From a virus (Duplodnaviria; Caudoviricetes): a DNA stretch of 64,000 nucleotides. Below, piece by piece: positions 1,360 through 57,814 of the stretch. Location of the stretch: positions 1-64,000 of IMG/VR virus record IMGVR_UViG_2740891861_000008; one strand, given 5' to 3'. How positions within the stretch are numbered: position 1 is the stretch's first letter; each line of letters begins with the position of its first letter. The translations under genes and the position numbers were made by a program. The notes beneath the pieces are model-generated. The model saw only the letters and a program-made list of their open reading frames with translations. It searched no databases and was not told where the DNA came from.

Positions 1360-1716
1360 ATTCTCCGCGCTAGATGCGGCGATTGTGCGCAGCATTCTCC
1401 GCAAGCGCAAGAAAAACACCGCAAGACATGCGGAGAATGTGGGAGCTAATTCCGCACGACATCGATAGGTCTCGGATCTGACGCCACGCTGCGCATCTCA
1501 AAATCCTTTGGCGTCAGAATACAGGTTCAAACTGTCATCAACGGCTGTTGCTGCTAGCGGGCTGAAATCAAAGCACGCACGACACGAACGCGTGGTTTCG
1601 TCGATTGTCGGCCAATGAAGCTGTAGAACTCCCAACCACGGCCTGTGCACTCGCCAGTTGCAGTTCAAGCCGGTCGCAGCACAAGCTGACAGGGCGCGAC
1701 GACGAGGCCCAGTTCA

Positions 1717-29502: not shown

Positions 29503-30831
29503 CTACTCCACCGTCAATCCAGCCTTCCTTCCCGTCGCCATCTCCCACCGCCGCACCGCGACGTCGCAGTAGACCGGGTCCAGTTCCACCGCGCAGCAGC
29601 GTCGTCCGGTGCGTTCGGCGGCGATCAGCTGGGTTCCGGAGCCGCAGAAGGGTTCGAACAACAGATCGCCAGGATCGGTGAAGGCCTCCAGCACCGCCTC
29701 TACCAGCGCCACGGGGAACACGGCCGGGTGCGATCCGGCTGCGCCAAGTCCGCCCTTGTGCCGCATGATCCGGAACACGGAGTCCGGGATCCGGTGGCTC
29801 TGGATCGCGTTGCCGAAGCCGGTCTTGCGGTGGACCGTGCCGTCGGCCCCGCGCAGGCCGCCGCCGCCGAGGGTTTCGCCCGCGTGCTTGCTCTCGACCG
29901 TCTTGTTCGGTTTGCGGGGCTGGCGGTTGAAGTGGAAGATGAACTCGTGCGAGGGCGCGAGGCGGCCGTTCCAGTCGCCGGGCAGGCCCGGCCCTTGGTC
30001 CCACACATACCAGCCAAACCGCCGCCAGCCCTGCGCACGCATCCAATCGAGCCAGCCCTCCCAATACGGAACCCACTCGCCATCGCGATGGACGAGGCCG
30101 AGGTTCACCAGCAGCTGGGAATCGGTATTGACCGGCGCTGTGGCGAAGACACCCTGCATCAGCGCATCCCAATCACCGACCTTCTCCTTCGCCGCGCCAT
30201 AGTCGCGCTGCTGGGCGTAGGGCGGGGAGGTGAACATCAGCGCTGCCTGCGCCCCATCCATCAGCCGCGCCACCACGGCCGGGTCGGTCGCATCGCCGCA
30301 GATCAGCCGGTGGTCGCCCAGCGCCCAGATATCGCCGGGGCGGGTGATCGGGTCAGCCGGGGCCTCCGGGATGGTGTCGGCCGCGTCATCGTCGATGGGC
30401 GCTCGGCCGTCGGCATCCTGCAGCAGCGCGTCCAGCTCGTCCTCAGGGATGCCCATCAGCCCGAGGTCGAAGTCCTCGGCCATCAGGCCCCGCAGTTCCT
30501 CGAGCAGGAGTGCCTCGTCCCACCCGCCCAGTTCGGTCAGCTTGTTGTCGGCGATGCGATAGGCCCGCCGCTGCGCCTCGGTCAGATGGCCCAGCACGAT
30601 GACCGGCGCCTCCGCCAGCCGGAGTTGTAACGCGGCCAAGACGCGACCATGGCCCGCGATCAACTCGCCATCTGCGGCGACGAGGCAGGGGACGGTCCAG
30701 CCGAACTCGGCCATGCTCGCGGCGATCTTTGCCACCTGGTCGGCGTCATGGGTCTTGGCATTTCGGGCGTAGGGGCGGAGACGGGCCAGCGGCCAGTGCT
30801 CGATCCGGCCGGGCAGGAGGGGCGCGTTCAT
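29503..30831 (-). CDS. ParB-N + DNA amino-methyltransferase
   Basis: LIAGHGR/IADNK ParB-like; TSPPY; HPAVFP; EPFCGSGT. Confidence 0.9.
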   Translation of the reverse strand: MNAPLLPGRIEHWPLARLRPYARNAKTHDADQVAKIAASMAEFGWTVPCLVAADGELIAGHGRVLAALQLRLAEAPVIVLGHLTEAQRRAYRIADNKLTELGGWDEALLLEELRGLMAEDFDLGLMGIPEDELDALLQDADGRAPIDDDAADTIPEAPADPITRPGDIWALGDHRLICGDATDPAVVARLMDGAQAALMFTSPPYAQQRDYGAAKEKVGDWDALMQGVFATAPVNTDSQLLVNLGLVHRDGEWVPYWEGWLDWMRAQGWRRFGWYVWDQGPGLPGDWNGRLAPSHEFIFHFNRQPRKPNKTVESKHAGETLGGGGLRGADGTVHRKTGFGNAIQSHRIPDSVFRIMRHKGGLGAAGSHPAVFPVALVEAVLEAFTDPGDLLFEPFCGSGTQLIAAERTGRRCCAVELDPVYCDVAVRRWEMATGRKAGLTVE

Positions 30832-31373
30832 GCCGCGAGCCGCTTTGCCTTGAGGGCGGCGAAGCTCTCGCCAGTTTCCACCAGCACCGCTTCCTGGCCG
30901 GTGAAAGATTGCCAGCGTTCGATGGCGACATCGACATAGGCCGGGTTCAACTCGACCCCGAAGCAGACCCGGCCGGTGGTTTCCGCCGCGATCAGCGTGG
31001 TGCCGGATCCCATGAAGGGCTCATAGACTGCCTGGCCGGGGCTGGAATTGTTCAGGATCGGGCGGCGCATGCATTCAACCGGCTTCTGCGTGCCATGCAC
31101 GGTGTCGGCGTCCTGATCCCGGTTGGCGATCTGCCACAGCGTGGTCTGCTTGCGGTCTCCGGCCCAATGGCCCTTGCCCGTCGCGCGCACCGCATACCAG
31201 CAGGGTTCATGCTGCCAGTGGTAATCGCCGCGGCTGAGCACCAGCCTGTCCTTGGCCCAGATGATCTGCGACCGGATGACGAAACCCGCGGCCACCAGGC
31301 TGTCGGCCACGGTCGCGGCATGCAGCGCGCCATGCCCGGTGTTTGTCAAAGGAGTTGTCGCCTGCTCTTGTTT

Positions 31374-32546
31374 TCAGGCTGCTCGTTCGACCGGCCCGGC
31401 CATGGGTCCGCCGCCGCCAGCTTGATGGGGGAGCGCGTCGGCGGACCCATGGCCTCCGCGCCCGGCATCTGGCCGTTCCGGGTTCAGCCAGACCGAGCCG
31501 ATGGGTTGCCAGTTGCGGGTCTTGCCTGACCAGCGCTCCGGGTGCGCAGCGCGGGCGAATTCATAGACCCGGTGGCGCTCGGCCAGCAGCGCCTTGTCCT
31601 CGCCGCGGTGGCGCTGGTCGGGGGTGACGAAGCGGATCGCGCTGTGACGGTGCTCGGTGTTGTACCAGCGCACGAAGCTCTGGACCCAGGCCCGTGCCTC
31701 GTCGATCGTCGCGAAGCCCCGGGTCGGCCAGCGGGGCGTGTACTTGCAGGTCCGGAACAGCGCCTCGGAGAACGGATTGTCGTTCGATACCCGCGGCCGG
31801 CTGAAGGACGCGATGACGCCCAGCCGCTCCATCGTCACCTTCATGGTGGCGCCCTTCATCGGACTGCCGTTGTCCGCATGGAGTACGAGCGGGCTGGTCA
31901 GGCACCGCTCCGACCAGACGGCGCGCTTGAGCACCTCGGCCGCGAAGTCCGAGGCCTCGCGCTCGTGGACTTCCCAGCCAACGATCTTCCGGCTGAAGAT
32001 GTCGACGATGAGATAGAGATAGAAGAAGGCACCGGCGATCGGTCCGGGCAGCCACGTTATGTCCCAGCTCCAGACCTGGCAGGGCGCCTTCGCCTCGAAG
32101 CCGGTCGGCGGTTTCTGGCGTGCCGCCGGTCGGGCGCGGCCCCGGCGGTGGTTTTGGCCGCGCTCGCGCAACACCCTGTAGATGCTGGATTCCGATCCGA
32201 TGTAGATGTCTCGGTCGGCCAGCCGGGGCACGATCTGGCTTGGTGGAAGACTTGCGAACTCGGGACTGGCACAGGTCGCCACGATCCGGTCGCGCTCCTC
32301 TTCCGAGAGTTTGTTGGCTGGCGCCGGGCGGTGCGCGGACGGACGGCGATCCTCGCGGATCCCGCCCTCGGGATCCTTCCAGCGCTGCAAGGTGCGGCGG
32401 CTCATCCCGAGTGTGGCGCAGGCGGCCCCCAAACGAGCTCCTGCCGTCGTCGCTTCGCCGATGAGGGCGACGATGTGCCGGCGATCCGAGGCAGACGTCA
32501 TTCCTCCGCGCCTCCCTCTGGGCCCCAGATCGCCTCGGCCTTTTTT
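31374..32546 (-). CDS. IS3 OrfB DDE transposase (OrfAB via -1 frameshift)
   Basis: WSWDIT, HADNG, SNDNPFSE.LF; slippery A-AAA-AAG at 32540-32546. Confidence 0.88.
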   Translation of the reverse strand, partial: KKGRGDLGPRGRRGGMTSASDRRHIVALIGEATTAGARLGAACATLGMSRRTLQRWKDPEGGIREDRRPSAHRPAPANKLSEEERDRIVATCASPEFASLPPSQIVPRLADRDIYIGSESSIYRVLRERGQNHRRGRARPAARQKPPTGFEAKAPCQVWSWDITWLPGPIAGAFFYLYLIVDIFSRKIVGWEVHEREASDFAAEVLKRAVWSERCLTSPLVLHADNGSPMKGATMKVTMERLGVIASFSRPRVSNDNPFSEALFRTCKYTPRWPTRGFATIDEARAWVQSFVRWYNTEHRHSAIRFVTPDQRHRGEDKALLAERHRVYEFARAAHPERWSGKTRNWQPIGSVWLNPERPDAGRGGHGSADALPHQAGGGGPMAGPVERAA

Positions 32547-32998
32547 CTGAGGATCATCAGCGCCGCCGCCTCGGCCAGCGCCTTCTCCTTGCGCGCGAGT
32601 TCGCGCTCCAGCTGCTGGATGCGTTTCTTGTCGTCCCGCGTCTCGCGCGCGATCCGGCTGGTCGCCGCCCGTTCCCAGTCGTTGGCGCGCGCGCACGCTT
32701 CGCGCCACACGACGAGTTGCTCGAGGTAGATGCCACGGCGCCGGCAGTATTCGCCCAGCTCGGCCTCGTTCAGCGAGGCTGTCTCGATCACCGCCGCCAG
32801 CTTGTCCTCGGAGGTCCAGCCCTCAGGCCCGGCGTTGGCGTCGGGCAGGAACTGCCCCTTCGCTCGCGCCTCCGCCCGCCACTTGGCAAGCGTGGCCACG
32901 CTGATCCCCTCCTCCTTGGCCAGCTGGCCCAACGGTATCTTGTTCGGCGGAAGCATCTTTCCGAGAACCGCCGCCTTTCGTTCTGGTGAATACGCCAA
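32498..32998 (-). CDS. IS3 OrfA (HTH + leucine zipper)
   Basis: YSPERK...GIS.ATL.KW; LERELARKEKALAEAAAL..LRKK. Confidence 0.85.
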   Translation of the reverse strand: MAYSPERKAAVLGKMLPPNKIPLGQLAKEEGISVATLAKWRAEARAKGQFLPDANAGPEGWTSEDKLAAVIETASLNEAELGEYCRRRGIYLEQLVVWREACARANDWERAATSRIARETRDDKKRIQQLERELARKEKALAEAAALMILRKKAEAIWGPEGGAEE

Positions 32999-33860
32999 CT
33001 CGTTGTCCTGTCCCGCCCGCCTCAGAATACACTTGCGGTATCAGAGCGGGCGACAACTTCCCTGACAGAGGGGGTGCCAGACATAGGCGACGTCACCGGG
33101 GAACAGCGCCCACGCTTCGCGCCAGTCGGCGCGGTCGTCGTTCAGCACCTTGCCGGTGCGTTTCGTCTTCGCGGCCCCGGCCTGGTTGCGCCAGGAGGGA
33201 TCGTATTCGACGCCGTAGGGCGGGTCGGTGACCATCAGTAGGGGGCGCACATCACCGAGCAGATGCCCCACGACATCGGCCGCGGTGCTGTCGCCGCAGA
33301 TCAGCCGGTGTGCGCCCAGCTGCCACAGGTCGCCCGGCACCGACACCGGTGAGACCGGCAGCTCCGGAACGTCGTCCGCACCCTCGACCGGACCATCCCC
33401 GCCCAGCGCCTCCGGATCCCGCAACAGCGCGTCAAGCTCATCGTCGCTGATGCCGAGCAGGGTCAGGTCGAAAACCTCGGCCAAGAGCCCCGCGATCTCG
33501 TCGCGCAGCAGGGCCTCGTCCCATTCGCCCAGTTCCGTCAGCTTGTTGTCCGCGATCCGGTAGGCCCGGCGTTCGGCCTCGTCGAGATGGCTGAGCCGGA
33601 TCACCGGCACCTCGGTCAGCCCGAGCATGGTGGCCGCCAGCACCCGGCCATGGCCCGCAATCAGCTCGCCGTCGTCGGCAACCATGCAGGGCACGGTCCA
33701 GCCGAACTTGGCCATACTGGCGGCGATCTTCGACACCTGGTCGTCGCCATGCATCTTGGCATTGCGGGCATAGGGGCGCAGCCGGGCAATCGGCCAGGAT
33801 TCAACCTGGCTCGGCGCGAAGACGAGGTCCATGGGATGGGGCTCGGGATGTGGGGGACGG

Positions 33861-33898
33861 AAAATGAAAAGCGCCCGCGAGAGGTATCCTCCGGGCGC
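33861..33898 (-). terminator. Promoter-proximal intrinsic terminator ahead of late operon
   Basis: Minus strand GCGCCCGGAGG-ATA-CCTCTCGCGGGCGC-TTTTCATTTT; TTGACA at 33940-33945 upstream. Confidence 0.6.
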
Positions 33899-33996
33899 AA
33901 TTCTTCGATGATCAAGGGGTAGGTCAATAGGGGCAGGTCTGTCAACCTGAAAAGTGAAGTGGATTCAACGGCTTCTCAGGAACTGACTTTCCGGGG

Positions 33997-34142
33997 TGGC
34001 TTCCGGCCACCTGGCTTCCCCGAAGGTGGCTTCCCTGGCTTCCCGCCGGGAATCCACCATGGCCAGATCGTGATTCCGCAAGCCGCTGATCTGACTCAAG
34101 ATTTCCGGCTCCGGGTCGCAAGGTTGCTTCCGCCTGGCTTCC
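33997..34142. repeat. TGGCTTCC direct-repeat array (candidate cos/pac binding sites)
   Basis: Exact copies at 33997, 34012, 34027, 34036, 34135; variant TTGCTTCC at 34124. Confidence 0.65.
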
Positions 34143-34257
34143 CCGGTGAAAATGCCTCTCGCTAGCAAACCGCCGCGCTGCGCCCCCCCGCATACGTTCA
34201 GCGCCTGGGAGGAACCAGAGGAGGGGTTAGTGGGTGGGTGAATTCACCCAATCTAAA

Positions 34258-35280
34258 TCACGCCTTCGGGAGGCGAACTGAGAAAACAATCTCACGACAG
34301 CTTCCTTTCCCAGTCATTATCTCCCGTTCACCAACAGTAACATCTATAGAGCCATTAAAGCTGGTTACGATCTGACTGCACAAAAACAGTCCCAACCCTG
34401 AGCCAGAGTCACCTCGATCACGTGTTGCCTCACCACGATAACCACGTTCAAAAATCCGCTGCTTCTCGTACTCCTTAATTTCAGGTCCAATCGAACTGAC
34501 AGAGAACGAGATATTTCCGTCCTCTTCTGAAACACTTACGTCAATGCTTCCGTTGTGAGGAGAGTATTTAATTGCATTGTCGATCAGAATGTATGGTACA
34601 ATCTCAAGTATATCAGGGCCGCGAGATGTTGAATATGAGCTGCCATTCAAGGATATTTGAACGCCTGACCGCTCTGCCATTGGGCGAAATGATCTAACAA
34701 CCTTGTCAACCTTTCGGAAGACCTGAACATTCGTTTTCGCACGCTCTTGTAAAGGATCCCCAGAGAAGTCTATCATGTCCACCCGGATCCGAAGCATGCT
34801 CTGGGCTGCAACAATATTGTCGATCAGACGAATAGCGCCATTGTCTCTAGGTAGCGCCTGTATTGAAAGTTTCGCTTCCTCCGCTGCATGATAAATTACG
34901 CCAGATAGCCTGCGCATGTCGTGAACAACTAGATTAAGGTCATTATGGTAGCTTGCTGCAAAAGCTGCTTCCAGACTTTCTAGGGAAGCAACGTACTCTT
35001 CTATCCGCTTCACTGTCATTTGGGCTGGTACTGCAAGTCGGTTCTTGAATACTGCAAGGCTAGGGATCGCGCCTGGAAAGCAGAAACGTGTCCCGTCGTT
35101 GCCTATACGTACGAGTGCCATGTAACCAAAATCAATCTTGTGCCAGCCAGCTGTGCGAAGGGCGGCATAGGACGATATTTTGGATGCTCCTGCCAGGTCG
35201 GCTGGTAGATTGAAGATGGCGCCAGGGTAATACCGAAAGGAATCGTCCGGCTTTGAAACAACGCAGTCGAGTGCGAACAT
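34258..35280 (-). CDS. Soluble histidine kinase-like protein
   Basis: H-box VVHDMR, N-box LIDNAIKYS, F-box IFERGYR, G2 GSGLGL; no TM segment. Confidence 0.8.
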   Translation of the reverse strand: MFALDCVVSKPDDSFRYYPGAIFNLPADLAGASKISSYAALRTAGWHKIDFGYMALVRIGNDGTRFCFPGAIPSLAVFKNRLAVPAQMTVKRIEEYVASLESLEAAFAASYHNDLNLVVHDMRRLSGVIYHAAEEAKLSIQALPRDNGAIRLIDNIVAAQSMLRIRVDMIDFSGDPLQERAKTNVQVFRKVDKVVRSFRPMAERSGVQISLNGSSYSTSRGPDILEIVPYILIDNAIKYSPHNGSIDVSVSEEDGNISFSVSSIGPEIKEYEKQRIFERGYRGEATRDRGDSGSGLGLFLCSQIVTSFNGSIDVTVGEREIMTGKGSCREIVFSVRLPKA

Positions 35281-35972
35281 TAGCTTCCTGTAAATGCCCT
35301 AAAGATTGCGCTAGAGACGAGGCCGTTAATAACGTCGACCGCAAACTTACTCAGCCCTCGCTTGGCGGCGACCTCCGTTAAATCATCAAAGTTAGATTTT
35401 CCGGAGATAACAGATCTCACATATGCATCCTCCAGTATCAACAGGGCCTTGGTATCTATGCCATCGTCGACGAGAGATCTGCGAATGCGTAGCCATATCT
35501 TCCGTTGATCGGATGCATCTCTGATCAAGCTGTCGAGCGCTTGGGTCCACTCGTCATTGTCAGCATCTTTCTTGATGAACCTGTCAGCCAAAGCTATGGC
35601 AGCTTTTGCCTGCTCAGAGCTTGCAGATGCCCCTGAGTAGGCGGCAACCATTATTGATGGGTAATTGTGGCGTATCTCACGAATAAGCGTTGCGCCCTGC
35701 TTCCGATCGTCAAAATTCAGACCAACTCCCATCAGATCACAGAGTACAATGGGGTAGGCCGAAACTTCATCGATCTTCTTGATGTCACCGATTTCAGCAA
35801 ATCGATAGCCAAAGTTCTTTAATGTGCGGCCTGCATCAAACGATTGATCATCAACAACACAGATTTCAAACCGAGCTCGGCGATCCTTGGGGAGCGCCTG
35901 AGCAGTTGTATTCGCTACAGGCAGGTCTGCCAGCGTGCGATATCTACTAATTAAGCCTAAAGTCAATTTCAT
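35280..35972 (-). CDS. Response-regulator receiver protein without recognisable output domain
   Basis: VVDD, VLCD, AYSG, FIKK; TAATG coupling to kinase. Confidence 0.72.
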   Translation of the reverse strand: MKLTLGLISRYRTLADLPVANTTAQALPKDRRARFEICVVDDQSFDAGRTLKNFGYRFAEIGDIKKIDEVSAYPIVLCDLMGVGLNFDDRKQGATLIREIRHNYPSIMVAAYSGASASSEQAKAAIALADRFIKKDADNDEWTQALDSLIRDASDQRKIWLRIRRSLVDDGIDTKALLILEDAYVRSVISGKSNFDDLTEVAAKRGLSKFAVDVINGLVSSAIFRAFTGS

Positions 35973-36095
35973 CTTGTCGTGCCTCTGGCCTTGTTTTCGG
36001 TCTTGTGTGTCTGTCTATGGGCGATGATGGCATTCCAAGTGTTTCGATGGGTCGCGACTATTGCGTCACTATGACAGCATTGGTATCAAGCTTTC

Positions 36096-38606
36096 CTAAA
36101 CGTCACCAAGCTCGTCAAAAATGGCGTTCAATGTTGGGTTAGATGCTGCCTGTCGAACGCGGGACCTTACCGCTGTTTTGTTCAGCTCCAACCTAACGAA
36201 AGCATCGCCTTTCTTTCGGATAAGCTGAATTCGAGTAAAGCGGTCGCCATGCTTTTCCGCAAACTCAGCAAGTCCCTGCGCCTTGTACAGGTTATCAGCG
36301 CGACTGTCGTCATGCGGTTCCAGAATGTCGAAGACGAAATCCGTGCCTTTGCTCCTCACGATCAGCATGTCGGGGAACATCGGTTTCCAAGCTCCGCTCA
36401 CCTGGTAGGGGATCTCAAGAGACCAGGGCTTCCTGTCGAGATTTCGTAGCCATCCAACGAAGTCATCTCGGCCCATTTCAAGCTTCAGGACGTCAGCTTC
36501 CCAAGGGTTCAGGGTTGTGCGGAACGATCCATCATATTCGACATAGAGGTGATGGCTCCATGTGGGTTCCGTGGTGTCGCGGCGAAAATCGATGGTGTCC
36601 TGCAGCCGCCAAGGTGTGCTTGAGGGGGTGGAAGACGCTGATTTCAGCTTGTCGTACCCGGCGCGCACCTGTTCTGTAAGTTTGGAAATCGCATGTCGGT
36701 GTGCGTCATAGAGCGCTTCAAACTGAGCCTTCGACTTGTTCTCCAAAGCAGAGCGCGCTGCCGCAGATGCAGCCACGATGATTGCTTCCAGTTTCACCTC
36801 CTGACCGTCACGTTCCGCGTTTGCCTTTCGGTAAAGCTGGTGGAGGCCATACCCTTGTCCTAAGGTGCGACCTGCGTCTTCAAACTGTCGGTCGACATCG
36901 AGATCTGAGACCTCAACGGTGTAGTCCTCTTGGCCTTCCGCCATTCCGGTCACGCCCGTGACCATGACTGTGCGCAAACCAACCTTTGTAAGGGACTTGC
37001 GCGCCTTCTCGAAGTCGCCAGATGCTTTCAACACGGCAACCTGCTCGCCGATCCATGACACGGCGTCAGCTTTGGCACCATCCCAGGCATTTGGGTCGAT
37101 TCCATCCATCGTTAGTCGGCTTGCTATCGCCTGGTAACGCCGGATGTCGCTCTGTGCCCGAACCGCGTTCACGCGATAGGTGACGAGCTCTACTGCCTCG
37201 ATAGCCTCGAAAACACTCTCGGTGCCGGGTCGACGGTGCAGGGTGACAAGCTTCGTCCCCTCTCCTGTCTCGGCCGGAACGATATCGTCGCTGGTTTGAA
37301 GTGCTGTGATGACCTGCTCGACGGCCGCTGCATTGAAATGAGGCAGATAAAGGTGGACGTCGTTCAGCTCGGCCGTGCTTTCGATCCTGCGCGCCAAAGG
37401 CGTCCGAACCATGCGCCCGAGAAGCTGAGCGATGTAGGTGTGGTCCTGCGCGCTACGGAAAGACATCATGACTTCTGCCCGTGGGCAATCCCATCCGGTA
37501 GAAAGCGCCAGCTTGAAGAATACCACCGAGACGTCTGCGTCGTCGTCGATGCGAGAAGGATCGATGTAGCGGATTGCGCGGTCGCCGACCTTCAGGCCCC
37601 CTTTATCCATCAATGCATGCGCGAGCTCGGAGTCCCGAAGGGGACGGCCAATGCCATCTTCAACCGCCTTGATCGCGTCCGCCAGGTTGGTTCGGGTGGG
37701 TGCGCCATCTTCAATCTGGATGACGAGAATGGGTCGCACAGGCCTTTCGCCCTCGTCCTTGCAGTAGGATGCCCATTGGTCGGTCATGACCTGCCATCGC
37801 CGTGCCGCCTCTTCAAGGATGCCCATTTCGGCATTCGTCGGGTTGGCGGGGTGGTGGATTAGGACACGCTCCTTGATCAGTCCGGACTTTTTCACATCCT
37901 CGACTGGCACTGGTACCTTGTGCTGGGTGTGGTCGGTGTCAGCCAGCAGCTCGTTGAAACGCTTGGGGGTTGCAGAGACGCCAATGATCAGCGGCATCTT
38001 CACCAGGCCGGTTTCCTTGTTGCCTTTGATGAACTGCTGAACGATCGTTTGTGCCGTTGCGCTGCCCTTGCCAGTGGTCATCCCACGATGGGCTTCATCG
38101 ATCACCACATAGAACCTGTCCGGGATCGCGCGCGCGGTGTTCGTCAGCGTTGTCCAGATAGAATAGCTGCGCCCATCGCCGACGGTCGTGAGCAGCCGGT
38201 CGCTGGCCAGCTTTTGGGTGTTGATGAAATAGATCTTGCCACCGGCCAGGCGCTCTTCGTCGAAGCTGGCTGTGATCACCTCCAGCTGCCCGACCCGGTA
38301 GACCTTGTCGGACTGACGTTCGATCTTGAGCTTCGTCTGCTCATTCAGCTCGGGCATGTCCGACACCCAGAGGATGACCGCATCCGGCTGGGGTACCCAA
38401 TCCAGCGGCCAGTCCAGCTGTTCGTCGGGCTGGTCGAGGATCGCCTCGAACAAGGCCGTCATGATGATCGTCTTGCCGCTTCCTGTGGGCGCGGACAGTG
38501 TGATGGCCTGCGGGGCTTCAGGCGACGCCGCGGGACGGGCCAGCATCAGCCGCTTTCGAAGGTTGTGCAGGGCATCCTTCTGGAAATCGAACAGTTCAAT
38601 CTTCAT
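36096..38606 (-). CDS. res: Type III R-M-like Res subunit (SF2 helicase + nuclease)
   Basis: APTGSGKT, IDEAH, GWDCPRAEV, QLLGRMVR; C-terminal PD..ILEPH. Confidence 0.82.
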   Translation of the reverse strand: MKIELFDFQKDALHNLRKRLMLARPAASPEAPQAITLSAPTGSGKTIIMTALFEAILDQPDEQLDWPLDWVPQPDAVILWVSDMPELNEQTKLKIERQSDKVYRVGQLEVITASFDEERLAGGKIYFINTQKLASDRLLTTVGDGRSYSIWTTLTNTARAIPDRFYVVIDEAHRGMTTGKGSATAQTIVQQFIKGNKETGLVKMPLIIGVSATPKRFNELLADTDHTQHKVPVPVEDVKKSGLIKERVLIHHPANPTNAEMGILEEAARRWQVMTDQWASYCKDEGERPVRPILVIQIEDGAPTRTNLADAIKAVEDGIGRPLRDSELAHALMDKGGLKVGDRAIRYIDPSRIDDDADVSVVFFKLALSTGWDCPRAEVMMSFRSAQDHTYIAQLLGRMVRTPLARRIESTAELNDVHLYLPHFNAAAVEQVITALQTSDDIVPAETGEGTKLVTLHRRPGTESVFEAIEAVELVTYRVNAVRAQSDIRRYQAIASRLTMDGIDPNAWDGAKADAVSWIGEQVAVLKASGDFEKARKSLTKVGLRTVMVTGVTGMAEGQEDYTVEVSDLDVDRQFEDAGRTLGQGYGLHQLYRKANAERDGQEVKLEAIIVAASAAARSALENKSKAQFEALYDAHRHAISKLTEQVRAGYDKLKSASSTPSSTPWRLQDTIDFRRDTTEPTWSHHLYVEYDGSFRTTLNPWEADVLKLEMGRDDFVGWLRNLDRKPWSLEIPYQVSGAWKPMFPDMLIVRSKGTDFVFDILEPHDDSRADNLYKAQGLAEFAEKHGDRFTRIQLIRKKGDAFVRLELNKTAVRSRVRQAASNPTLNAIFDELGDV

Positions 38607-41155
38607 GCGACGCCCCCGATGCCAGCAGCGGCATCTTCCGCCCGCGTATTGATTGTAAAGTTCACGAGGTAGTCCCGGTAGAGCTGAACGAACTCGACGT
38701 CCGGGTTACGGGCGATCAAGGCGATGCGCAGTTCCCCTGAAATCGCTCGGAAGGCCTCCTCTGCATCCGTCACGACGTAGACATGCCGCAGTGCTTCCCT
38801 GGCCAGCAGGGCTTCGCGAAAAGCCGTCACGCGTGTCTCATTCAGCAAGACTGCGAACGGGCTGCTTTCCGGAACGAAGACATCCGGCAAGGGGCCTTCA
38901 GGCAAGGTAGGCGACGGGCCGATGGCCCCCGACTTCATCCACAGTAGAGGCAGGATTTCCCTGAAGGCCGCACCAAGCTCCACCCGGTCTTTGTCGAGGA
39001 AGTCGAGCTTGAAGTACGCGACGTTCGCAGGAAACCCTGCCGACATCGGGCGCTTTTCCTCATCCTGGACGATCAACGGGCCAAGCAGGTCATCCACTTG
39101 GGCCTTGAGAGCTTTGAACTGCTTCTCATCCCCGGCAACTATATAGAAATCAGAAATGTGGTCTTTGTCCTCCAAAGCCTCCAGCCACTCAGCAGCAGCA
39201 TCAGGTTCGAACAGGACGGACGCCGTGTGATCTTCGGATACAATGAATCGGCAGCCAAGAGTGACACTGCTCTGAGGTAGTGCCTCGATCATTGCGACAA
39301 GTGCTAGCTTCTTCTTGTGCGCAGCTCTGTGAGCTTTCTTCGCGGCTGCTCCCTGTAAGCCAGCTTCAACGATCAAGTCACTTGGAGACACAAAAGCCGC
39401 GTGGCGGTACGTCCTGCGCTTCTCTTTCTCAACTAAACGACCGGTGAGAAACTCGCCGCTTAATTCGGACCCATCGTCGCGTTTGCCAAGGACCGTGAAT
39501 TTCGTTCGTGGCCAAGTGACAGATCGGCAAACGCCGTGGCGCTCCCATTTCACATGCCCCGGGTCAAATCCGTCGTTTGAAAGCGCTGCTGCCTCCTTGG
39601 CCGAGACTTCATTGTTGGTGACCAGCAAGCAGCGTCGATTGCCTTGATCAATATCATTGATCAATGTGACCGCATTCAATGTGGTACCGCTTCCAGCGAA
39701 GAAGTCGACAATTAAGGCATCCTTTCGATCGCCAATGATTGGTAGCAAAGAATCTCTGACAGCGTAGACTGACTTTGGAAATGCAAAGATGCCGCGCTTA
39801 TTCAGCACTTTGTGCAGCAGAGTCGTTCCGTGGGTTCCGGCGTCGTGTAGCGTATCCCACCATACAGTCTTGACCTTTGTCTTGTTCGGCTTTCTTTCCC
39901 ATATATTGATCGTCCACGTCTTTTTCTTCTTGTTGAACTTTCCTAGAACGACACGCTCTGAGTCTATCAATTCCTGCATTTTGGGGGATACAAAGCGCCA
40001 GCAGCGATGATTTCCATCATGGTCGATCGGCCAAATTGGCTTCAATCCGTCCGGATCAAGGGAAAAGTCAGGCTCTTGGCCGAGTGGAATACTTGGCCCA
40101 GTCCGAACTACCTTTCCTGCCGACTCGTCAATATATATTGGATAGAATTGGTTCCATCTTTGATGCCGATAGCTCGATTCGCTACCCCGTCGTCTTGCAT
40201 GCCTCTTTTCCCAAAGATGTGCAAAAACAGGATTCAAGTGTGACCGGTCTGAGGCGTCGATTGTTACTTCTTCGTCAACATCCTCCTCAGATTCATTGCC
40301 TTCCTCATCGGCAGCGTGATCTAGGGAGATGCCTTGTGCAACGCCGCCTTCGACGTTAGGGAAGCAATAGATTGCCTGTTCTTCGACGCGAGCAAAGTTG
40401 GCTTTTCCAGTTCCCTTCGGATTGATCACAATCGTTACCATTTGCCGGAGATACTCAGGGAAGCACTCTGAAAGCAAAACGCCTAGGTTGAAAAGCTCGT
40501 TTTCATCGATTGTGACAATCAATACGCCGGTCAAGGGCTTTAGTAATCGCTTAGCAAGTTGAAGTCGCTTTTGCATCATTGACAGCCACTTGCTATGTCT
40601 CCAGCTGTCCGCCCGATCCACGAAATCGTTATTGTACTTCCAGTCGCGCGCGCCAGAGTTGTATGGCGGATCGATGTAAATGCAGTCTACCTTGCCCGCG
40701 TAAAGGTATTCCAGAAGCTGCAGTGCGTGGTAATTGTCGGCCTCAATCAGCGTGTGCCACGGCGCATCGGCTGGGCCGTTCTGCACGGCGTCCATGGGCG
40801 TGAGGGTCGGAAAGATCGGGTCTCCGAATTGCTTGACCACCACCAACTCAGCGACTGGCAGGGTCATCCTTTCCCCTGCGCTTTCCTTGTCACCCGCCTG
40901 CCGCGGCTTCATCAGATGCGCGGTACCGCCTTCAATCCGTCGAACGCGCCAGGTCTCGTTCAATGATCCGGAGCGCTTCGCGACCAGGTCACCCTTCCGA
41001 GGCTTGGCGCTGTAGATGGGAACCACCTCAGGCAGGTGTTGTTCGAAGACCAGTCCGAACTTCTTGTGCCGTGTCGCGGCCTCCCATTCGCGCGTGATGC
41101 GTTCCCGCAGCTTGGGGTCAGTGATCTGGTTCAACAGGTCATGTATCGCGGCCAT
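38603..41155 (-). CDS. mod: Type III R-M-like Mod methyltransferase
   Basis: FGLVFE, IEADNYHAL, IDPPY, FPKS, DFFAGSGTT; ATGA overlap with res. Confidence 0.85.
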   Translation of the reverse strand: MAAIHDLLNQITDPKLRERITREWEAATRHKKFGLVFEQHLPEVVPIYSAKPRKGDLVAKRSGSLNETWRVRRIEGGTAHLMKPRQAGDKESAGERMTLPVAELVVVKQFGDPIFPTLTPMDAVQNGPADAPWHTLIEADNYHALQLLEYLYAGKVDCIYIDPPYNSGARDWKYNNDFVDRADSWRHSKWLSMMQKRLQLAKRLLKPLTGVLIVTIDENELFNLGVLLSECFPEYLRQMVTIVINPKGTGKANFARVEEQAIYCFPNVEGGVAQGISLDHAADEEGNESEEDVDEEVTIDASDRSHLNPVFAHLWEKRHARRRGSESSYRHQRWNQFYPIYIDESAGKVVRTGPSIPLGQEPDFSLDPDGLKPIWPIDHDGNHRCWRFVSPKMQELIDSERVVLGKFNKKKKTWTINIWERKPNKTKVKTVWWDTLHDAGTHGTTLLHKVLNKRGIFAFPKSVYAVRDSLLPIIGDRKDALIVDFFAGSGTTLNAVTLINDIDQGNRRCLLVTNNEVSAKEAAALSNDGFDPGHVKWERHGVCRSVTWPRTKFTVLGKRDDGSELSGEFLTGRLVEKEKRRTYRHAAFVSPSDLIVEAGLQGAAAKKAHRAAHKKKLALVAMIEALPQSSVTLGCRFIVSEDHTASVLFEPDAAAEWLEALEDKDHISDFYIVAGDEKQFKALKAQVDDLLGPLIVQDEEKRPMSAGFPANVAYFKLDFLDKDRVELGAAFREILPLLWMKSGAIGPSPTLPEGPLPDVFVPESSPFAVLLNETRVTAFREALLAREALRHVYVVTDAEEAFRAISGELRIALIARNPDVEFVQLYRDYLVNFTINTRAEDAAAGIGGVA

Positions 41156-41419
41156 TTGTTTCGCCGTCTTTCCTTGAGGTTAATCGAACGCACTCTGCGG
41201 GATTCGTGTCGGGCTTCCAAAGCGTTACCTTCGCCCGTTTCCTTGGGCTGCGCAACGCGTCGGGGCGGTTGATCGACCCCGGTGTGTGGGTTTTCGACAG
41301 GGTCGCAGTGAGCGCGACGTGTGCCTTCGGTCGAGCGCCCAAATGTTGGGGCATTGTCGGCAGCGCGGGGCCTTCGGTTCGCGGGTCGCCAATGCACCTC
41401 TTTCCTTCTCCTGACTGGA

Positions 41420-42109
41420 TCATCGCACCTCCCACACCTCGCCGTTGTCGAGCTGCTTGACGAAATCCACCGTTGCGCCGTTCCAGTGATAGGCGAAATG
41501 CGCGCCTTGGGTGGGGATCGGGATCACGTCGGGCCAGAAGACGGCGATGCACTGGCCCTCGGGATAGCGGATGCTGGGCCAGGTGATGCCGTTTGATCCG
41601 GCCGCGCGTCGCTCGGCCCCGAAGACCTGGGACGCGCGGTAGTCGTTGGCGTCCAGCAGGTCGGCGCGGCCGGTGGCGTCGTCCAGATCGGCATCGACGG
41701 ACCCGATCAGTTCGCGGAACTGCGACGTCCAGCCCGGCGACTCGTTCGTGGCGCGCATGAAGCGCGTATGGTGGTGGATGGTTTCGGCGATGGCCACTTC
41801 GGTGCGGTCGCCCGCGTAGTAGAGGCCAAAGCTGCCGTCCGAAAACCGCCCCGGCCGCAGGGGCGAGCAATGGACGAAGGGTGCTATGACCCAGCTGGCG
41901 CCGGGCCCGGTCACGCGGCGTGCGACCGGCACCTTCGACAGATCACCGATGCTGTCGCGGATGCGCGGGTTGAACTTGGCTTCGGCCGAGGCCAGCGCCT
42001 CCCAATCGGCGGGGTCGGCGATGTCTTCGAACAGGTCGATGGGCGGGTGGATCGAGCGGATGATGCGGACAGTGCGTGGCCATGTCACGCGGCGGACAGG
42101 CACATTCAC
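41420..42109 (-). CDS. RES-domain toxin
   Basis: GRFSDGSFGLYY, AIAET, WPSIR; GTG start overlapping antitoxin stop. Confidence 0.85.
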   Translation of the reverse strand: MNVPVRRVTWPRTVRIIRSIHPPIDLFEDIADPADWEALASAEAKFNPRIRDSIGDLSKVPVARRVTGPGASWVIAPFVHCSPLRPGRFSDGSFGLYYAGDRTEVAIAETIHHHTRFMRATNESPGWTSQFRELIGSVDADLDDATGRADLLDANDYRASQVFGAERRAAGSNGITWPSIRYPEGQCIAVFWPDVIPIPTQGAHFAYHWNGATVDFVKQLDNGEVWEVR

Positions 42110-42519
42110 CAGGCACCCCGTTCTGCATCCAGATAGGCGCGCAGGTCGATCAGGTCGGTGATCTCGCCGCGCATCATGATGTCCAGCGCGCTGCGACCGC
42201 CGAGGGCTGTGCTGGGTTTGCGGATCCACGCATAGCCGCGGGTGGGTTCGGTGAAGAGGTACCGCAGCGCCTTGTGGATCCCCATCAGGATCGCCATCCG
42301 CGCGCGCAGGTCCCGGTCGATGCGCCCGATGTCGCCGGTCTTCCAGCGCGCCCATGTGCGCTGGGCCATGTCGCCCAGTAGCACGCGCGCCTCGCCATCC
42401 GTCAGGCCCCAGGCGCGGAACAGGTTGACGGTGGTGCGCGCCAGCGCAGCCGCTTCCTCGTCGGTGATGACAGGAAGGCCAGGGCGCGCGATGATCGGCT
42501 GGACCGTGGCGAACTGCAT
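42106..42519 (-). CDS. Xre/MbcA/ParS-type antitoxin
   Basis: HTH then W...P...LGG.SALD.M, LRAYLDAERG. Confidence 0.85.
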   Translation of the reverse strand: MQFATVQPIIARPGLPVITDEEAAALARTTVNLFRAWGLTDGEARVLLGDMAQRTWARWKTGDIGRIDRDLRARMAILMGIHKALRYLFTEPTRGYAWIRKPSTALGGRSALDIMMRGEITDLIDLRAYLDAERGAW

Positions 42520-42577
42520 GGTCGTTCTCCTTTGGCATCAAGATAGTCATTATGTGCCAAAAGGCAATGACGATCCG

Positions 42578-43255
42578 TTACCCGGACGGACGCACCCTCG
42601 CCCAAGGGGCGGGACGGGGCATCGCGGCTGTAACATCAACCTCGCGCAGCATCCCGCCCGCGATTAGCCCCTCCCGGACCCAGCCCAGCGCCTGCCACCA
42701 TTCGTCATATCCCCGCCGGGCGGCCTCGATCTGCTGGGGATGGGGCGAGAACGTGACCGGGCAGGCCAGGATGTCGATGGTCTTCCATGTGGCACGGGCG
42801 CCCGCGCCACGCACGCGGATGCGCTCCGTTCCCACGACGATGGCGCCCGCATGTGTGCCATGCTGGTTCTGTTTCACGATGGTCGGCACGCAGCGCGGCA
42901 CAGCGCCGGGCATCCAGTCCGGGGTCAGCCCGGCGCGGGCCAGTTCGGCAACGCGGATCGCCATGCGCTTGCCGCCGAGGCTGTCTGGGATACCGGCGAC
43001 GGTGGCGGCGATCACTTCGGCGTCCTCGTGGGTGTAGCCGCCGATCTTGTGCTGGCCGCCGTCGATCTTGCAGCCCAACACGGCGCGCTGGAGGAGGACG
43101 TATTCCAGACCGAAGCCGAAGCCTTCCTCGGTGATGTCCGGGGGCAGGGGCAGTTCAAGCTGCGCCTGTTCCACTCGGAACGCCCATTCCAGCGCCGCCT
43201 GCACGCCCAGCGCGCGCTTGATCCTGGTGCCGCTGACGCGGCCGTGGAAGCTCAT
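42578..43255 (-). CDS. Conserved prophage protein (late regulator / antiterminator candidate)
   Basis: Last gene of the coupled early operon; function inferred from position only. Confidence 0.55.
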   Translation of the reverse strand: MSFHGRVSGTRIKRALGVQAALEWAFRVEQAQLELPLPPDITEEGFGFGLEYVLLQRAVLGCKIDGGQHKIGGYTHEDAEVIAATVAGIPDSLGGKRMAIRVAELARAGLTPDWMPGAVPRCVPTIVKQNQHGTHAGAIVVGTERIRVRGAGARATWKTIDILACPVTFSPHPQQIEAARRGYDEWWQALGWVREGLIAGGMLREVDVTAAMPRPAPWARVRPSG

Positions 43256-47449: not shown

Positions 47450-48721
47450 TCAGGCCGATTTCGGCAAGTCGGTTCCGTCCTGCGCTGCGTCATGCACAAG
47501 GCGGGGCCGCGGGCGCAGGAGACTGGCCACCGTATCGACGCCTGCGCGCAAGGGGGAATCCATCAGGTGCGCATAACGCTGGGTGGTCTGCATCTGGCTG
47601 TGGCCCAAGAGCTTGCCGATCATTTCCAGCGATGCGCCGCCGCTGACAAGCAGGGAGGCGAAGGTGTGGCGCAGGTCGTGGATGCGGACGTCGGCCAGCC
47701 CGGCGTCCTTCTGTGCCTTGGCCCAGAAACGGCGGATTTCACGCACCGGCTGGCCAACCGTCTCGCCGGGGAAGAGCCACGGATTGCCGCTCGGCACCGC
47801 CCGCAGACGCAGGCGCACGATGGCTGCGACGTCCTGCGAAATCGGCACACGGTGGATCTTGCGCTGCTTGGTGGTCGAGGCGGGTTTCGACCAGATGGCA
47901 TAGTCGAGGTTCAACTGTTCGAACCGCGCGGTGCGAACCTCGCCCACCCGCGCGCCGGTCAACATGCACATGCGGATGATCGCCGCGGCGCGCTGATCCT
48001 CGGCGCCATCCAGCACGGCCGCCAGTCGAGTCAGCTCTTCGGGCGACAGGAAGCGCTCGCGGGCATGTTCGATGCGACGATGGAACCCCTGCGCGGGGTT
48101 GTCCGTCCGCCATTCCCATTCCATGGCCAGCGTGAACATCTTGCGCAGCACCTCACCCATGCGGTTGGCGCGGATCGGGGTGGGCTTGTGGCCCTGCAGT
48201 TTGCGGGCCCTGTTATTGGGTTTCGCCTTGCAGGGGCGGGGGCGGCCCTCGGCCACAAAATCGAGGAACTTTGCCACATCGGACTTGGTGATCTCTGTCA
48301 CCAGCCGGTTGCCCCAGGCCGGTTCCACCATCTTCTTCAGCATCGAGACCTGGTCGCCCGCATTGGTCTTGGCGAGTTTCGGCAGATGCTCGGCGATGTA
48401 GCGGTCGATCATGTCCGTGACGCGCGGGGCCCCTCGCCATTCGTCGCGCGCCGCCAGAGGGTCCTGCCCTTCGTCGATGGCGCGCCGCAGTTCCTTGGCG
48501 CGTTCGCGCGCGGCCGTGACGCTCCACTCCGGCCAGCGCCCGATGGTCATCCGGCGCTGCCGCCCTGAGTGCCGGTAGTCGATGGTGAAGGTCCGCGCGC
48601 CCGAGGCCTGCACGCGGGCGGCGAAGCCGATCACCTCCGTGTCGAAGATCTGATAGCTGACGCCGGGCTTGGGGTCCGCCTCGCGCAGGGTTTTCTCATT
48701 CAGTTTCAGTCTCTTGACCAT
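47450..48721 (-). CDS. int: Tyrosine integrase with arm-binding N-domain
   Basis: TGARVGE, HDLRH, LGH, TQRYAH; SD GGAGG. Confidence 0.93.
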   Translation of the reverse strand: MVKRLKLNEKTLREADPKPGVSYQIFDTEVIGFAARVQASGARTFTIDYRHSGRQRRMTIGRWPEWSVTAARERAKELRRAIDEGQDPLAARDEWRGAPRVTDMIDRYIAEHLPKLAKTNAGDQVSMLKKMVEPAWGNRLVTEITKSDVAKFLDFVAEGRPRPCKAKPNNRARKLQGHKPTPIRANRMGEVLRKMFTLAMEWEWRTDNPAQGFHRRIEHARERFLSPEELTRLAAVLDGAEDQRAAAIIRMCMLTGARVGEVRTARFEQLNLDYAIWSKPASTTKQRKIHRVPISQDVAAIVRLRLRAVPSGNPWLFPGETVGQPVREIRRFWAKAQKDAGLADVRIHDLRHTFASLLVSGGASLEMIGKLLGHSQMQTTQRYAHLMDSPLRAGVDTVASLLRPRPRLVHDAAQDGTDLPKSA

Positions 48722-48790
48722 GCTTCGCACCTCCGTCGCCAACGACACAGGCGTAGACCTGCGCCACTATCAAGTCGGACCACAGGGCCG

Positions 48791-56229: not shown

Positions 56230-56441
56230 GGCTGTTCCGGCTGGCGCGGGAGGAACGGGACGCGTGGGTGACCTGGCCTGCGCGCGCGGCGGCGCTGATG
56301 GCGGCCGAGCTCTCGGCCTCGTGCCGCGACGCGACGGGCCAGCAAATCACCGTGGAGCCAGCCGCGATGCAGAAGGTCCTGGAAAAACATGTACGCGCCC
56401 ACCTCGACGAACTCGCCGAGGTCCGGCCCGACTTCCGGTGA
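56230..56441 (+). pseudogene. terS: terS C-terminal fragment
   Basis: LFRLAREERDAWVTWPA..HVRAHLDELA, paralogous to 27166-27702. Confidence 0.8.
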
Positions 56442-57814
56442 GAGCGGCGATGGCCTGACGCACTTCGACGGCGCGGGCGAGATCCTGCGCGCCTGGGGCA
56501 ACGGGCTGCGGCCCGACCCGGACCTGACCGTCTCGGAATGGGCGGACCGGCACCGGATGCTCTCGGGCCGCGCCTCGGCCGAGCCCGGGCGGTATCGCAC
56601 GGTGCGCACGCCCTACATGCGCGAGATCATGGATCGGCTGTCGCCGGGCGATCCCACGCAGCGGATCGTGTTCATGAAGGCTGCGCAGGTCGGGGCGACC
56701 GAGGCCGGCAACAACTGGATCGGCTTCGCGATCCATCAGGCGCCGGGCCCGATGCTCGCGGTCCAGCCGACGGTGGAACTGGCCAAGCGCAACTCGCGAC
56801 AGCGGATCGACCCGCTGATCGACGAGAGCCCCGAGCTGCGGGAGCGGGTCAAGCCCGCGCGATCCCGCGATGCGGGCAACACGATGCTGTCGAAGGAATT
56901 CGCGGGCGGCATCCTGATCATGACGGGCGCGAACTCGGCGGTCGGGCTGCGCTCGACCCCGGCACGGTACATCTTCCTCGACGAGGTCGACGCCTATCCG
57001 GCCTCGGCCGACGAGGAAGGCGATCCGGTGACGCTGGCCGAGGCCCGGTCGCTGACCTTCGCCCATCGCCGCAAGGTGCTGCTCGTCTCGACCCCGACGA
57101 TCCGGGGGCTGAGCCGGATCGAGCGCGAATACGAGGCGTCCGACCAGCGCCGGTTCTTCGTGCCGTGCCCGCATTGCGGTGCGATGCAGTGGCTGAAGTT
57201 CGACCGGCTGCGCTGGCAGAAGGGCCGCCCGGAGACGGCGGAGTATCACTGCGAGGGCTGCGAAACGCCCATCGCGGAGCACCACAAGACGGCGATGCTG
57301 GAGGGCGGCGAATGGCGGGCGACCGCGACCGCCGCCGATCCGACGACGGTCGGGTATCACCTCTCGGCGCTCTATTCGCCGATCGGCTGGCTGAGCTGGG
57401 AGCGGATCGTGCGGGCATGGGACGCGGCTCAGGGGTCGGACGAGGCGATCAAGGCGTTCCGCAACACGATCCTCGGCGAGACCTGGGTCGAGACCGGGGA
57501 AGCCCCGGACTGGCAGCGGCTCTACGACCGCCGCGAGCGCTGGACATCCGACACGGTGCCAGCTGGCGGGCTGTTCCTGACCGCCGGGGCAGACGTGCAG
57601 AAGGACCGGATCGAGGTCGACGTCTGGGCATGGGGGCGCGGTCTGGAAAGCTGGCTCGTCGATCATGTCGTGATTGAGGGCGGGCCGGACCGGCACGACG
57701 CGTGGTCGGAGCTGACGGCGCTGCTGGATCGAAGCTGGCCGCATGCCCGGACGGCCGCTTTCGGTGCTGGCATTGACGGTTCCGATTGCTTGGAAAAACG
57801 TGAGCGACAGTAGC

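Follow-up and report, generated by a model that had tools for sequence, protein, structure and literature searches.

A mobile His-Asp phosphorelay cassette, possibly of defence type, behind the type III restriction-modification genes of a prophage

What does a histidine kinase-receiver pair with neither a membrane sensor nor a recognizable output domain do in a prophage, directly behind the genes of a type III restriction-modification (R-M) system? The question is raised by positions 1-64,000 of the IMG/VR virus record IMGVR_UViG_2740891861_000008 (Duplodnaviria; Caudoviricetes); this whole stretch of 64,000 nucleotides is called the window below, and the pair occupies its positions 34258-35972. 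Our analysis suggests that the pair is an independent 1.9-kb insertion behind the R-M genes of the prophage and not a part of that system. At about even chances, in our estimate, it is a self-contained, mobile cassette for a His-Asp phosphorelay of defence or conflict type, forming a distant branch of the candidate system PDC-M43 and following a logic similar to that of the Detocs system.

The two genes of the pair are as follows (coordinates in the window, strand, content):

35280-35972, minus strand: receiver protein gene, an open reading frame (ORF) of 230 amino acids, with about 30 N-terminal residues, a receiver domain (residues 34-154, phospho-acceptor D79) and a five-helix C-terminal domain (residues 156-228)
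34258-35280, minus strand: soluble class-I histidine kinase gene, an ORF of 340 amino acids, with an alpha/beta N-domain (residues 1-72), a DHp domain (H120) and a CA domain

The stop codon TAA of the receiver gene shares bases with the start codon ATG of the kinase gene (TAATG), and the two genes are predicted to be translationally coupled. The G+C content of the pair is 0.48, versus 0.65 in the remaining window. Relatives of both proteins were collected by word-indexed searches, which yielded about 47 full-length kinases and 46 receivers, often sharing contigs; residue conservation was counted over 46 receivers and 39 kinases.

The first protein matches the Pfam family Response_reg with only 22.2 bits, under the cut-off of 30.2. 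This low score notwithstanding, it is predicted to be a receiver with a CheY-like (beta-alpha)5 fold: the AlphaFold2 model has a pLDDT of 90.9, and its superposition by VIA on the solved receiver 3hv2 gave Z 15.7 and 2.1 A across 117 residues. The phosphorylation residues D41, D42, D79, and K135 are each invariant in all 46 relatives, and position 113 is occupied by serine in 25 and by threonine in 21 of them. After the receiver domain the model shows a C-terminal bundle of five helices at residues 156-228. Foldseek and VIA matches to the model reach residues 30-160 only, a BFVD search returned generic receivers only, and the C-terminal domain had no PDB sequence match at E 10 and no usable Atlas lead. 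A LuxR/NarL-type helix-turn-helix in this domain, an idea that arose from the database naming of two relatives and the high Foldseek rank of FixJ/NarL, was rejected, the root-mean-square deviation being 8-13 A, with no GerE match at E up to 1 (for this and all other negatives at E up to 1, HMMER filters drop most matches above about E 0.1). A profile of the C-terminal domain found 230 proteins at E up to 0.001 among 1.84 billion representatives. In the best 150 of these 230, the domain is terminal in proteins of about 200-285 amino acids (mostly 215-240) or in shorter ones, presumed to be fragments, the sole exception being a 3230-amino acid protein with eight short partial stretches. These matches indicate that the bundle is private to the receiver family, no other architecture apart from this one protein occurring among the best 150 of the 230, and that the first searches had captured only part of the size and diversity of the family.

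The second protein is a class-I histidine kinase (DHp plus HATPase_c) with every catalytic box except the G1 aspartate. Pfam HATPase_c was found at E 3.7e-18, while HisKA had no match in Pfam. In the AlphaFold2 model (pLDDT 83.2), a small alpha/beta N-domain (residues 1-72) is followed by two long DHp helices (90-141 and 147-174), and the CA domain spans 183-338. In Foldseek it matched HK853 (E about 1e-14) and CpxA (2e-13); the top match, WalK-YycH (4.8e-15), is an integrative model and not a solved structure. Residues H120, D121, N235, F277, G293, G295, and G297 are each invariant in 39 of 39 relatives. H120 sits in the helix 90-141 of the model and is aligned with the H-box of HK853, with the acidic D121 next to it. 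The G1 box reads S263-x-G265-P266-x in place of DxGxG, its last glycine being variable; S263 stands at the column of the G1 aspartate in 39 of 39 relatives and is aligned with the D of 'eDnGiG' in HK853. The serine at G1 is no proof of a dead kinase, since the solved sensor kinase entry 7zp0 (titled CusS) has asparagine at the same column. The phosphatase motif of HisKA kinases is a threonine or asparagine four residues past the histidine. Here this position (residue 124) is R in 21, Q in 8, H in 5, N in 2, and S, K, and A in one relative each (n = 39). The absence of threonine or asparagine from 37 of the 39 kinases suggests that the kinase is without the usual phosphatase activity. No transmembrane segment was found in either protein, the best 19-residue Kyte-Doolittle mean reaching 1.32 in the receiver and 1.19 in the kinase. 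The kinase N-domain had no PDB sequence match at E 10 and no usable Atlas lead.

Most of this agrees with the first-pass annotation of the stretch. It had described an AT-rich, TAATG-coupled pair about 120 bp behind res and in the same orientation, and the ORFs, the overlap, a spacing of 123 nt and the G+C content (48% vs 65%) are in line with that description. Its receiver, keeping the residues DD/D/S/K and lacking any output domain beyond helical extensions, corresponds to the conserved positions counted above (serine or threonine at 113) and to a protein that adds to its receiver domain about 30 N-terminal residues and the modelled five-helix bundle. For the kinase it had listed intact H, N, F, and G2 boxes, an altered G1 DxG, no transmembrane segment, and an unrecognized N-domain; the boxes hold in 39 of 39 relatives each, as does the serine at the aspartate column, the hydropathy agrees, and the N-domain, again without a database match, is modelled as a small alpha/beta domain.

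The genomic contexts of the pair were surveyed in 32 non-redundant loci including the window (31 others), four of the 32 being too short to show any neighbour. Two genomes flagged as unpublished are the basis of no conclusion drawn here. The kinase gene directly follows the receiver gene in 28 of the 29 loci with a visible downstream side; in the exception (L096, 10028-11816) an IS110-family transposase takes the place of the kinase, and a tRNA-Pro gene lies directly upstream. The recurrence of the identical gene pair in 28 of 29 loci is far beyond chance. No other neighbour gene was common to the surveyed loci. The pair thus appears to be a self-contained two-gene cassette, in which two private domains always travel together. 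A contig profile search with the kinase alignment returned almost exclusively generic kinases: of the 80 loci kept, one (L001) held a full family member, and a short one (L003) also matched the kinase profile.

Several lines of evidence suggest a rare pair of foreign origin that moves among bacterial genomes, plasmids, and prophages. First, the receiver profile detected it in two of 400 other genomes from the order of the window; the profile gave no match in the two genomes examined from the same genus or in the 400 genomes of a class-wide sample, and a single one in 201 genomes of another family (f147 below). Second, all 14 loci measured, and the window as well, showed a lower G+C content in the pair (0.42-0.51) than in its flanks (0.49-0.71). 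Third, its contexts include carriers and sites of mobile cargo. In the window it lies in a prophage with tail, portal, TerL (gpA-type terminase), and integrase genes, where it occupies an accessory stretch between ParB-type methylases and a RES-domain gene. Another copy is found near type IV secretion system (T4SS) genes of the conjugative Phaeobacter inhibens plasmid NZ_CP081217, a further one on an IMG/VR contig, and in one locus (L113) an integrase gene is directly upstream of the pair. On a metagenome contig (L093) the pair stands in a defence island, amid SIR2 and HerA, PD-T4-3, McrBC, and an insertion sequence (IS).

As a side observation, a pair of 31% identity is carried by MT838345.1 (L116), deposited as 'UNVERIFIED: Bacteriophage sp.'. 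Upstream of it are only polysaccharide genes (GT8, UDP-galactopyranose mutase, rhamnose epimerase, and a GH95 fragment) and two non-phage-like ORFs, and downstream there is a fragment of an IrrE/M78-like peptidase gene; this sequence looks bacterial rather than phage.

An unexpected context is the 3' side of genes for nucleotide excision repair: 10 of the 32 non-redundant loci are situated immediately 3' of uvrA (8) or uvrB (2). The uvrA gene is convergent with the pair in four loci (L089, L097, L101, and G1175) and co-directional in three (L090, L092, and L095), and in L100 an IS lies between uvrA and the pair; in L001 and L087 the neighbour is uvrB, with the pair at its 3' end. In the receiver tree, which holds nine of these ten loci (all but that of G1175), they are scattered. 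Seven changes are required, of which supported branches force at least six, and 170 of 500 label shuffles gave a count as low, so that the loci group no more tightly than shuffled labels do. Among the uvrA hosts UvrA is 65-90% identical, versus 32-62% for the kinases. In L100 and L101 the UvrA proteins are 90% identical and the cassettes just 62-64%, which could reflect either fast divergence of the cassette or its replacement at the slot.

The site itself was compared in 30 genomes of f147, each of another genus (loci L142-L174, including the three genomes named here). In G1175 the pair (G+C 0.46) is convergent with uvrA (0.66). At the same site G693 has a gene for a 630-amino acid OLD/ABC-type ATPase (G+C 0.45; Pfam AAA_15 and AAA_21; PADLOC AriA 8.6e-25 and Old 3.4e-15), and G545 a gene for a 720-amino acid protein with NERD and SEC-C domains (G+C 0.46). 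In 15 of the 30 genomes, the G+C content of the 1.5 kb on the 3' side of uvrA falls short of that of the gene by 8 points or more. The flanks of 27 genomes resemble no other, and the other three form one cluster. Of 24 other alphaproteobacteria, 22 had a flank of 1.2 kb or more, and three of these showed dips of at least 0.10. The comparison of occupied and empty sites in f147 and the G+C dips there indicate that the 3' flank of uvrA serves some lineages as a hypervariable slot for foreign cargo. Both alternative cargoes are of kinds common in defence systems, which would implicate the pair by location. In at least one alphaproteobacterial family this flank, and perhaps that of uvrB, could be mined for defence genes. 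A functional tie of the pair to nucleotide excision repair was set aside for the simpler hot-spot reading after the f147 sites had been compared. SOS control of the pair was likewise dropped: simple LexA-box-like patterns, applied as a crude test, matched once in 30 upstream regions.

How could such a cassette work? In the mechanism that we propose for a phosphorelay of defence or conflict type, the cytoplasmic N-domain of a soluble kinase dimer would sense a signal of infection or DNA stress inside the cell. H120 would then be autophosphorylated and the phosphate would pass to D79, whose phosphorylation would switch the five-helix C-terminal domain. The latter may act via protein contacts, by binding or oligomerizing, and so stop growth or block the invader; a non-catalytic action is proposed because the domain contains no enzyme-like motif. 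That a kinase-receiver relay can serve defence at all is shown by the precedent of Detocs (cited below). A stricter version is possible though rather doubtful, namely that the pair is a minimal two-gene immune system, directed against phages or other mobile elements, with a sensor of about 70 residues and, as a new class of effector, a helical bundle of 75 residues without an enzymatic domain; in this version the serine that replaces the G1 aspartate may tune nucleotide use.

A number of observations weigh against a defence or conflict function. A textbook defence island is seen in only 1 of the 32 contexts; most neighbours had no PADLOC match at 1e-8, and some are plainly housekeeping genes (aminotransferase, the small subunit of AHAS, FAA hydrolase, and TctC). 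The contexts surveyed are those of relatives more distant than the closest ones (75-81% identity), and the alternative cargo of the uvrA slot is annotated in two genomes only. The C-terminal domain has no toxin, nuclease or membrane signature by Pfam, PDB sequence search, and hydropathy. The matches to PDC-M43 are limited to generic parts of the two proteins, the receiver domain in the first (28-150 of 230 residues) and the CA domain in the second (205-327 of 340); PDC-M43 is itself only a candidate. Finally, the public sequencing runs that cover the pair consist of contigs, probably of DNA; the contig of run X1 that spans 34987-36232 (kinase, receiver, and the end of res) is evidence of linkage, not of a transcript.

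Some of these observations are what would be expected of an ordinary accessory signalling pair, whose kinase would sense a metabolic or stress cue and whose receiver would bind a host protein in the manner of CheY, DivK or CpdR, with no role in conflict. The catalytic residues of the phosphorelay are canonical, no killing domain is recognizable, PADLOC is silent on most neighbours, and the pair does occur in housekeeping surroundings, such as an aminotransferase and an ABC-2 transporter (L114), AHAS (L083), and FAA hydrolase with TctC (L107). However, such a role is hard to reconcile with the very patchy distribution (2/400, 0/400, and 1/201 genomes), with a G+C content under that of the flanks in 15 of 15 cases, with copies on a plasmid, in a prophage, and beside an integrase, with a slot shared with OLD-type and NERD genes, or with the divergence or replacement of the pair in L100 and L101 (62-64% vs 90% for UvrA). 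We therefore consider this explanation unlikely, although it is the strongest of the rivals.

Alternatively, the pair could serve the mobile element that carries it, as an addiction module of the toxin-antitoxin kind, in superinfection exclusion, or as a decoy tapping host relays of the CckA-ChpT-CtrA type. Its position in the accessory region of the prophage, between the methylases and the RES-domain gene, its presence beside T4SS genes on a conjugative plasmid and next to an integrase, and the tight gene overlap, which recalls toxin-antitoxin pairs, would all fit. Ten of the 32 copies, however, consist of nothing but the two genes inserted next to uvrA or uvrB, and no genes of an element are visible around them. 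This explanation, which seems improbable to us, also overlaps with that of a defence or conflict cassette, and the two cannot be separated by sequence.

The remaining candidate is the neighbouring R-M system, with the pair as its controller, guard or sensor, a special case among the readings of the first-pass annotation. The features that bear on this are the following:

38603-41155, minus strand: type III mod gene, a neighbour outside the cassette (PADLOC MTase_III 8.4e-110, Pfam N6_N4_Mtase 9.2e-17)
36096-38606, minus strand: type III res gene, a neighbour outside the cassette (Pfam ResIII 1.4e-16, PADLOC REase_III 4.1e-08)
34227-36135, no strand: cassette, the 1909 bases defined by a natural variant without the pair, comprising the last 13 codons and the stop codon of res, a spacer of 123 nt, both genes, and a tail of 31 nt
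34224-34230, plus strand: 7-nt direct repeat, copy 1, at the low-coordinate edge of the cassette, with the breakpoint 34226 inside it
36136-36142, plus strand: 7-nt direct repeat, copy 2, at the high-coordinate edge of the cassette, its first base being the breakpoint 36136

Public sequencing runs were compared over positions 32900-42600 of the window. A contig of run X16 (record 10), which comes from a relative with 13-26 letter differences per piece, joins position 36136, in the 3' end of res, to 34226, and 131 other letters replace the 1909 bases in between. This joint implies that a sister element has the R-M system without these 1909 bases, and it delimits the cassette as 34227-36135. Neither run X16 nor run X4 has any cover over 34520-35815, while res, mod, and the flanks are covered; the joint of 33335 to 42425 in X4, backed by just 21 letters on one side, was not used. 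The 7-nt repeat at both edges may be a matter of chance, a shared 7-mer in two zones of 60 nt having a rough estimate of about 0.2. The analysis thus separates the cassette from the R-M system, and the exact boundaries of the 1.9-kb segment can be used for cloning.

Control of the R-M system would be in keeping with the co-orientation of res, receiver, and kinase genes, with the spacing of only 123 nt between the stop of res at 36096 and the receiver gene, in which a promoter and terminator scan found nothing exceeding shuffled sequences, and with the precedent of the R-M-linked pairs HEF_HK and Response_reg_2 (PMC8011034); but it is very improbable here and as a family trait largely refuted, given that the variant in X16 keeps res without the pair, that X4 covers res and mod and not the pair, that mod, res or a methylase gene adjoins the pair in 0 of the 31 other non-redundant loci, that G+C at third codon positions is 0.45 and 0.49 in the pair versus 0.68 in res and 0.62 in mod, and that neither PF19191 nor PF19192 matches the pair at E up to 1. 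This special case of the first-pass annotation is accordingly not supported. Of the broader proposal made there, a role in conflict and not in ordinary transcriptional control, the special tie to R-M is lost, and the remainder is supported by the absence of a DNA-binding or other known output domain, the lack of a conserved neighbour, the patchy distribution, the foreign composition, a PADLOC relationship to PDC-M43 only, and contexts typical of conflict cargo (prophage, conjugative plasmid, integrase neighbour, defence island, and the hypervariable slot that also takes up genes for an OLD-type ATPase and a NERD protein).

Several other features of the window were recorded. A cluster of short direct repeats (33995-34146) with the core TGGCTTCC, present in at least six copies and four overlapping families, is located in the 425-nt spacer that separates the kinase gene from a methylase fragment. 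The fragment belongs to a ParB-like N6/N4 DNA methylase gene (30828-33832) that an IS carrying HTH_Tnp_1 and rve genes (31374-32998) has split into two parts, 30828-31349 and 33041-33832; a paralogue at 29503-30831 is intact. On the other side, directly beyond mod and on the same strand, lies the RES-domain ORF (41420-42550; Pfam 7.9e-31), with no PADLOC or PHROGs match; the ORF as called, of 376 amino acids, is probably too long at its start. Outside the prophage integrase gene (47450-48748), the segment 49639-53705 encodes a 368-amino acid ORF and a 987-amino acid ABC/SMC-type ATPase matching PADLOC Ppl (5.9e-30) and AAA_21, which may be another pair of defence genes. A second gpA-type terminase gene (56389-57813) is truncated, its nuclease domain being cut at 140 of 294, and the end of the window (62895-63962) encodes the C-terminal part of a DrmMI/type IIG enzyme (PADLOC 9.6e-89, MmeI_TRD); both are remnants of further mobile or defence elements. 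At the opposite end (259-4665), a gene for a Fic/DOC protein with DUF4172 (PADLOC SoFic 1.9e-44) adjoins one for a 982-amino acid UvrD-type helicase with a Top1 zinc ribbon (GajB-like, 2.8e-41), and a tRNA-Met gene is located beside them at 49-125.

How does the cassette compare with known systems? Classical orphan pairs with stand-alone receivers (CheY, DivK, and Spo0F) are alike in kinase core, receiver fold, and residues. The pair differs from them in the replacement of the G1 aspartate by serine (39 of 39), the lack of a HisKA match, the missing threonine or asparagine at position +4 from the histidine (37 of 39), the private domains, the mobility, and the patchy occurrence. PHROGs assigned the two proteins to generic kinase and receiver families only. 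A parallel in logic alone is offered by CapK-CapS (Chambers et al., 2026, PMC13373217), where immune operons and a toxin-antitoxin system are served by a GHKL kinase and its substrate, which sense a by-product of DNA repair. Folds and chemistry are unrelated, that system being an anti-sigma-type serine kinase plus a STAS protein, and no homology is claimed.

HEF_HK (PF19191) and Response_reg_2 (PF19192) form two-component-like pairs linked to R-M and paraMORC (Bellieny-Rabelo et al., 2021, PMC8011034). They share with our pair the adjacency of a kinase-like and a receiver-like gene beside R-M genes; the difference is that the kinase described here is a true DHp plus HATPase_c enzyme and that the linkage to R-M is seen in this window alone. 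Besides PF19191 and PF19192, HATPase_c_3 also had no match to the pair at E up to 1.

The closest system at the level of sequence is PDC-M43. PADLOC assigned the adjacent proteins of the window to PDC-M43A (receiver, 3.5e-13) and PDC-M43B (kinase, 3.5e-19), and among the relatives 46 of 46 receivers matched PDC-M43A and 39 of 39 kinases PDC-M43B (best values 2.6e-19 and 1.9e-22), with no other PADLOC family matched. The PDCs are 145 candidate systems found embedded in BREX, DISARM or type I R-M loci (Payne et al., bioRxiv 10.1101/2024.01.29.577857); the name 'PDC-M43' was not found in the literature searched. The two share an organization in two genes, a receiver and a soluble kinase of about 345 amino acids, and the kinase match is collinear, residues 205-327 falling on 208-330 of 347. 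However, the PDC-M43A models end with the receiver (residue 150 here corresponds to position 198 of 203), carry an N-terminal extension, and have no C-terminal helical domain. The matches do not extend over most of the protein or model, as judged without the coverage rules of PADLOC itself. The pair was embedded in BREX, DISARM or type I R-M in 0 of 32 loci, standing here behind, and not inside, a type III system. A search for PDLC04646 gave no match at 1e-15 in 401 genomes of the phylum, in which the control matched nowhere either. Because the matches cover the receiver and CA domains only and the A models stop where the C-terminal domain starts, the family is read as a distant sister of PDC-M43 with a presumably different output, and not as PDC-M43 proper.

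In logic the cassette comes closest to Detocs, the one validated defensive two-component system, made up of a kinase (DtcA), a buffer receiver (DtcB), and a receiver-effector (DtcC) (Rousset et al., bioRxiv 10.1101/2023.01.24.525353). The likeness lies in a core of His-to-Asp phosphotransfer, a stand-alone mobile module, and a receiver fused to an output that does not bind DNA. In Detocs there are three genes, the sensor is of TPR type, and the known killing effector is a PNP, a nuclease or a transmembrane hydrolase, whereas the pair has two genes. No TPR, PNP, nuclease or transmembrane domain was found in its proteins (Pfam, E up to 1), and no second receiver gene stood beside it in the loci scanned with the family profiles; the PADLOC families other than PDC-M43 gave no match, it being uncertain whether the profile set includes DtcA, DtcB or DtcC models. 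By this analogy the pair would share the logic of Detocs, not its parts. If the cassette is indeed defensive, it would be a compact model of a phosphate switch that arrests a cell or a phage without an enzyme, through a sensor and an output that match nothing known; and, Detocs having shown that two-component signalling can itself be immunity, it would be the smallest such system.

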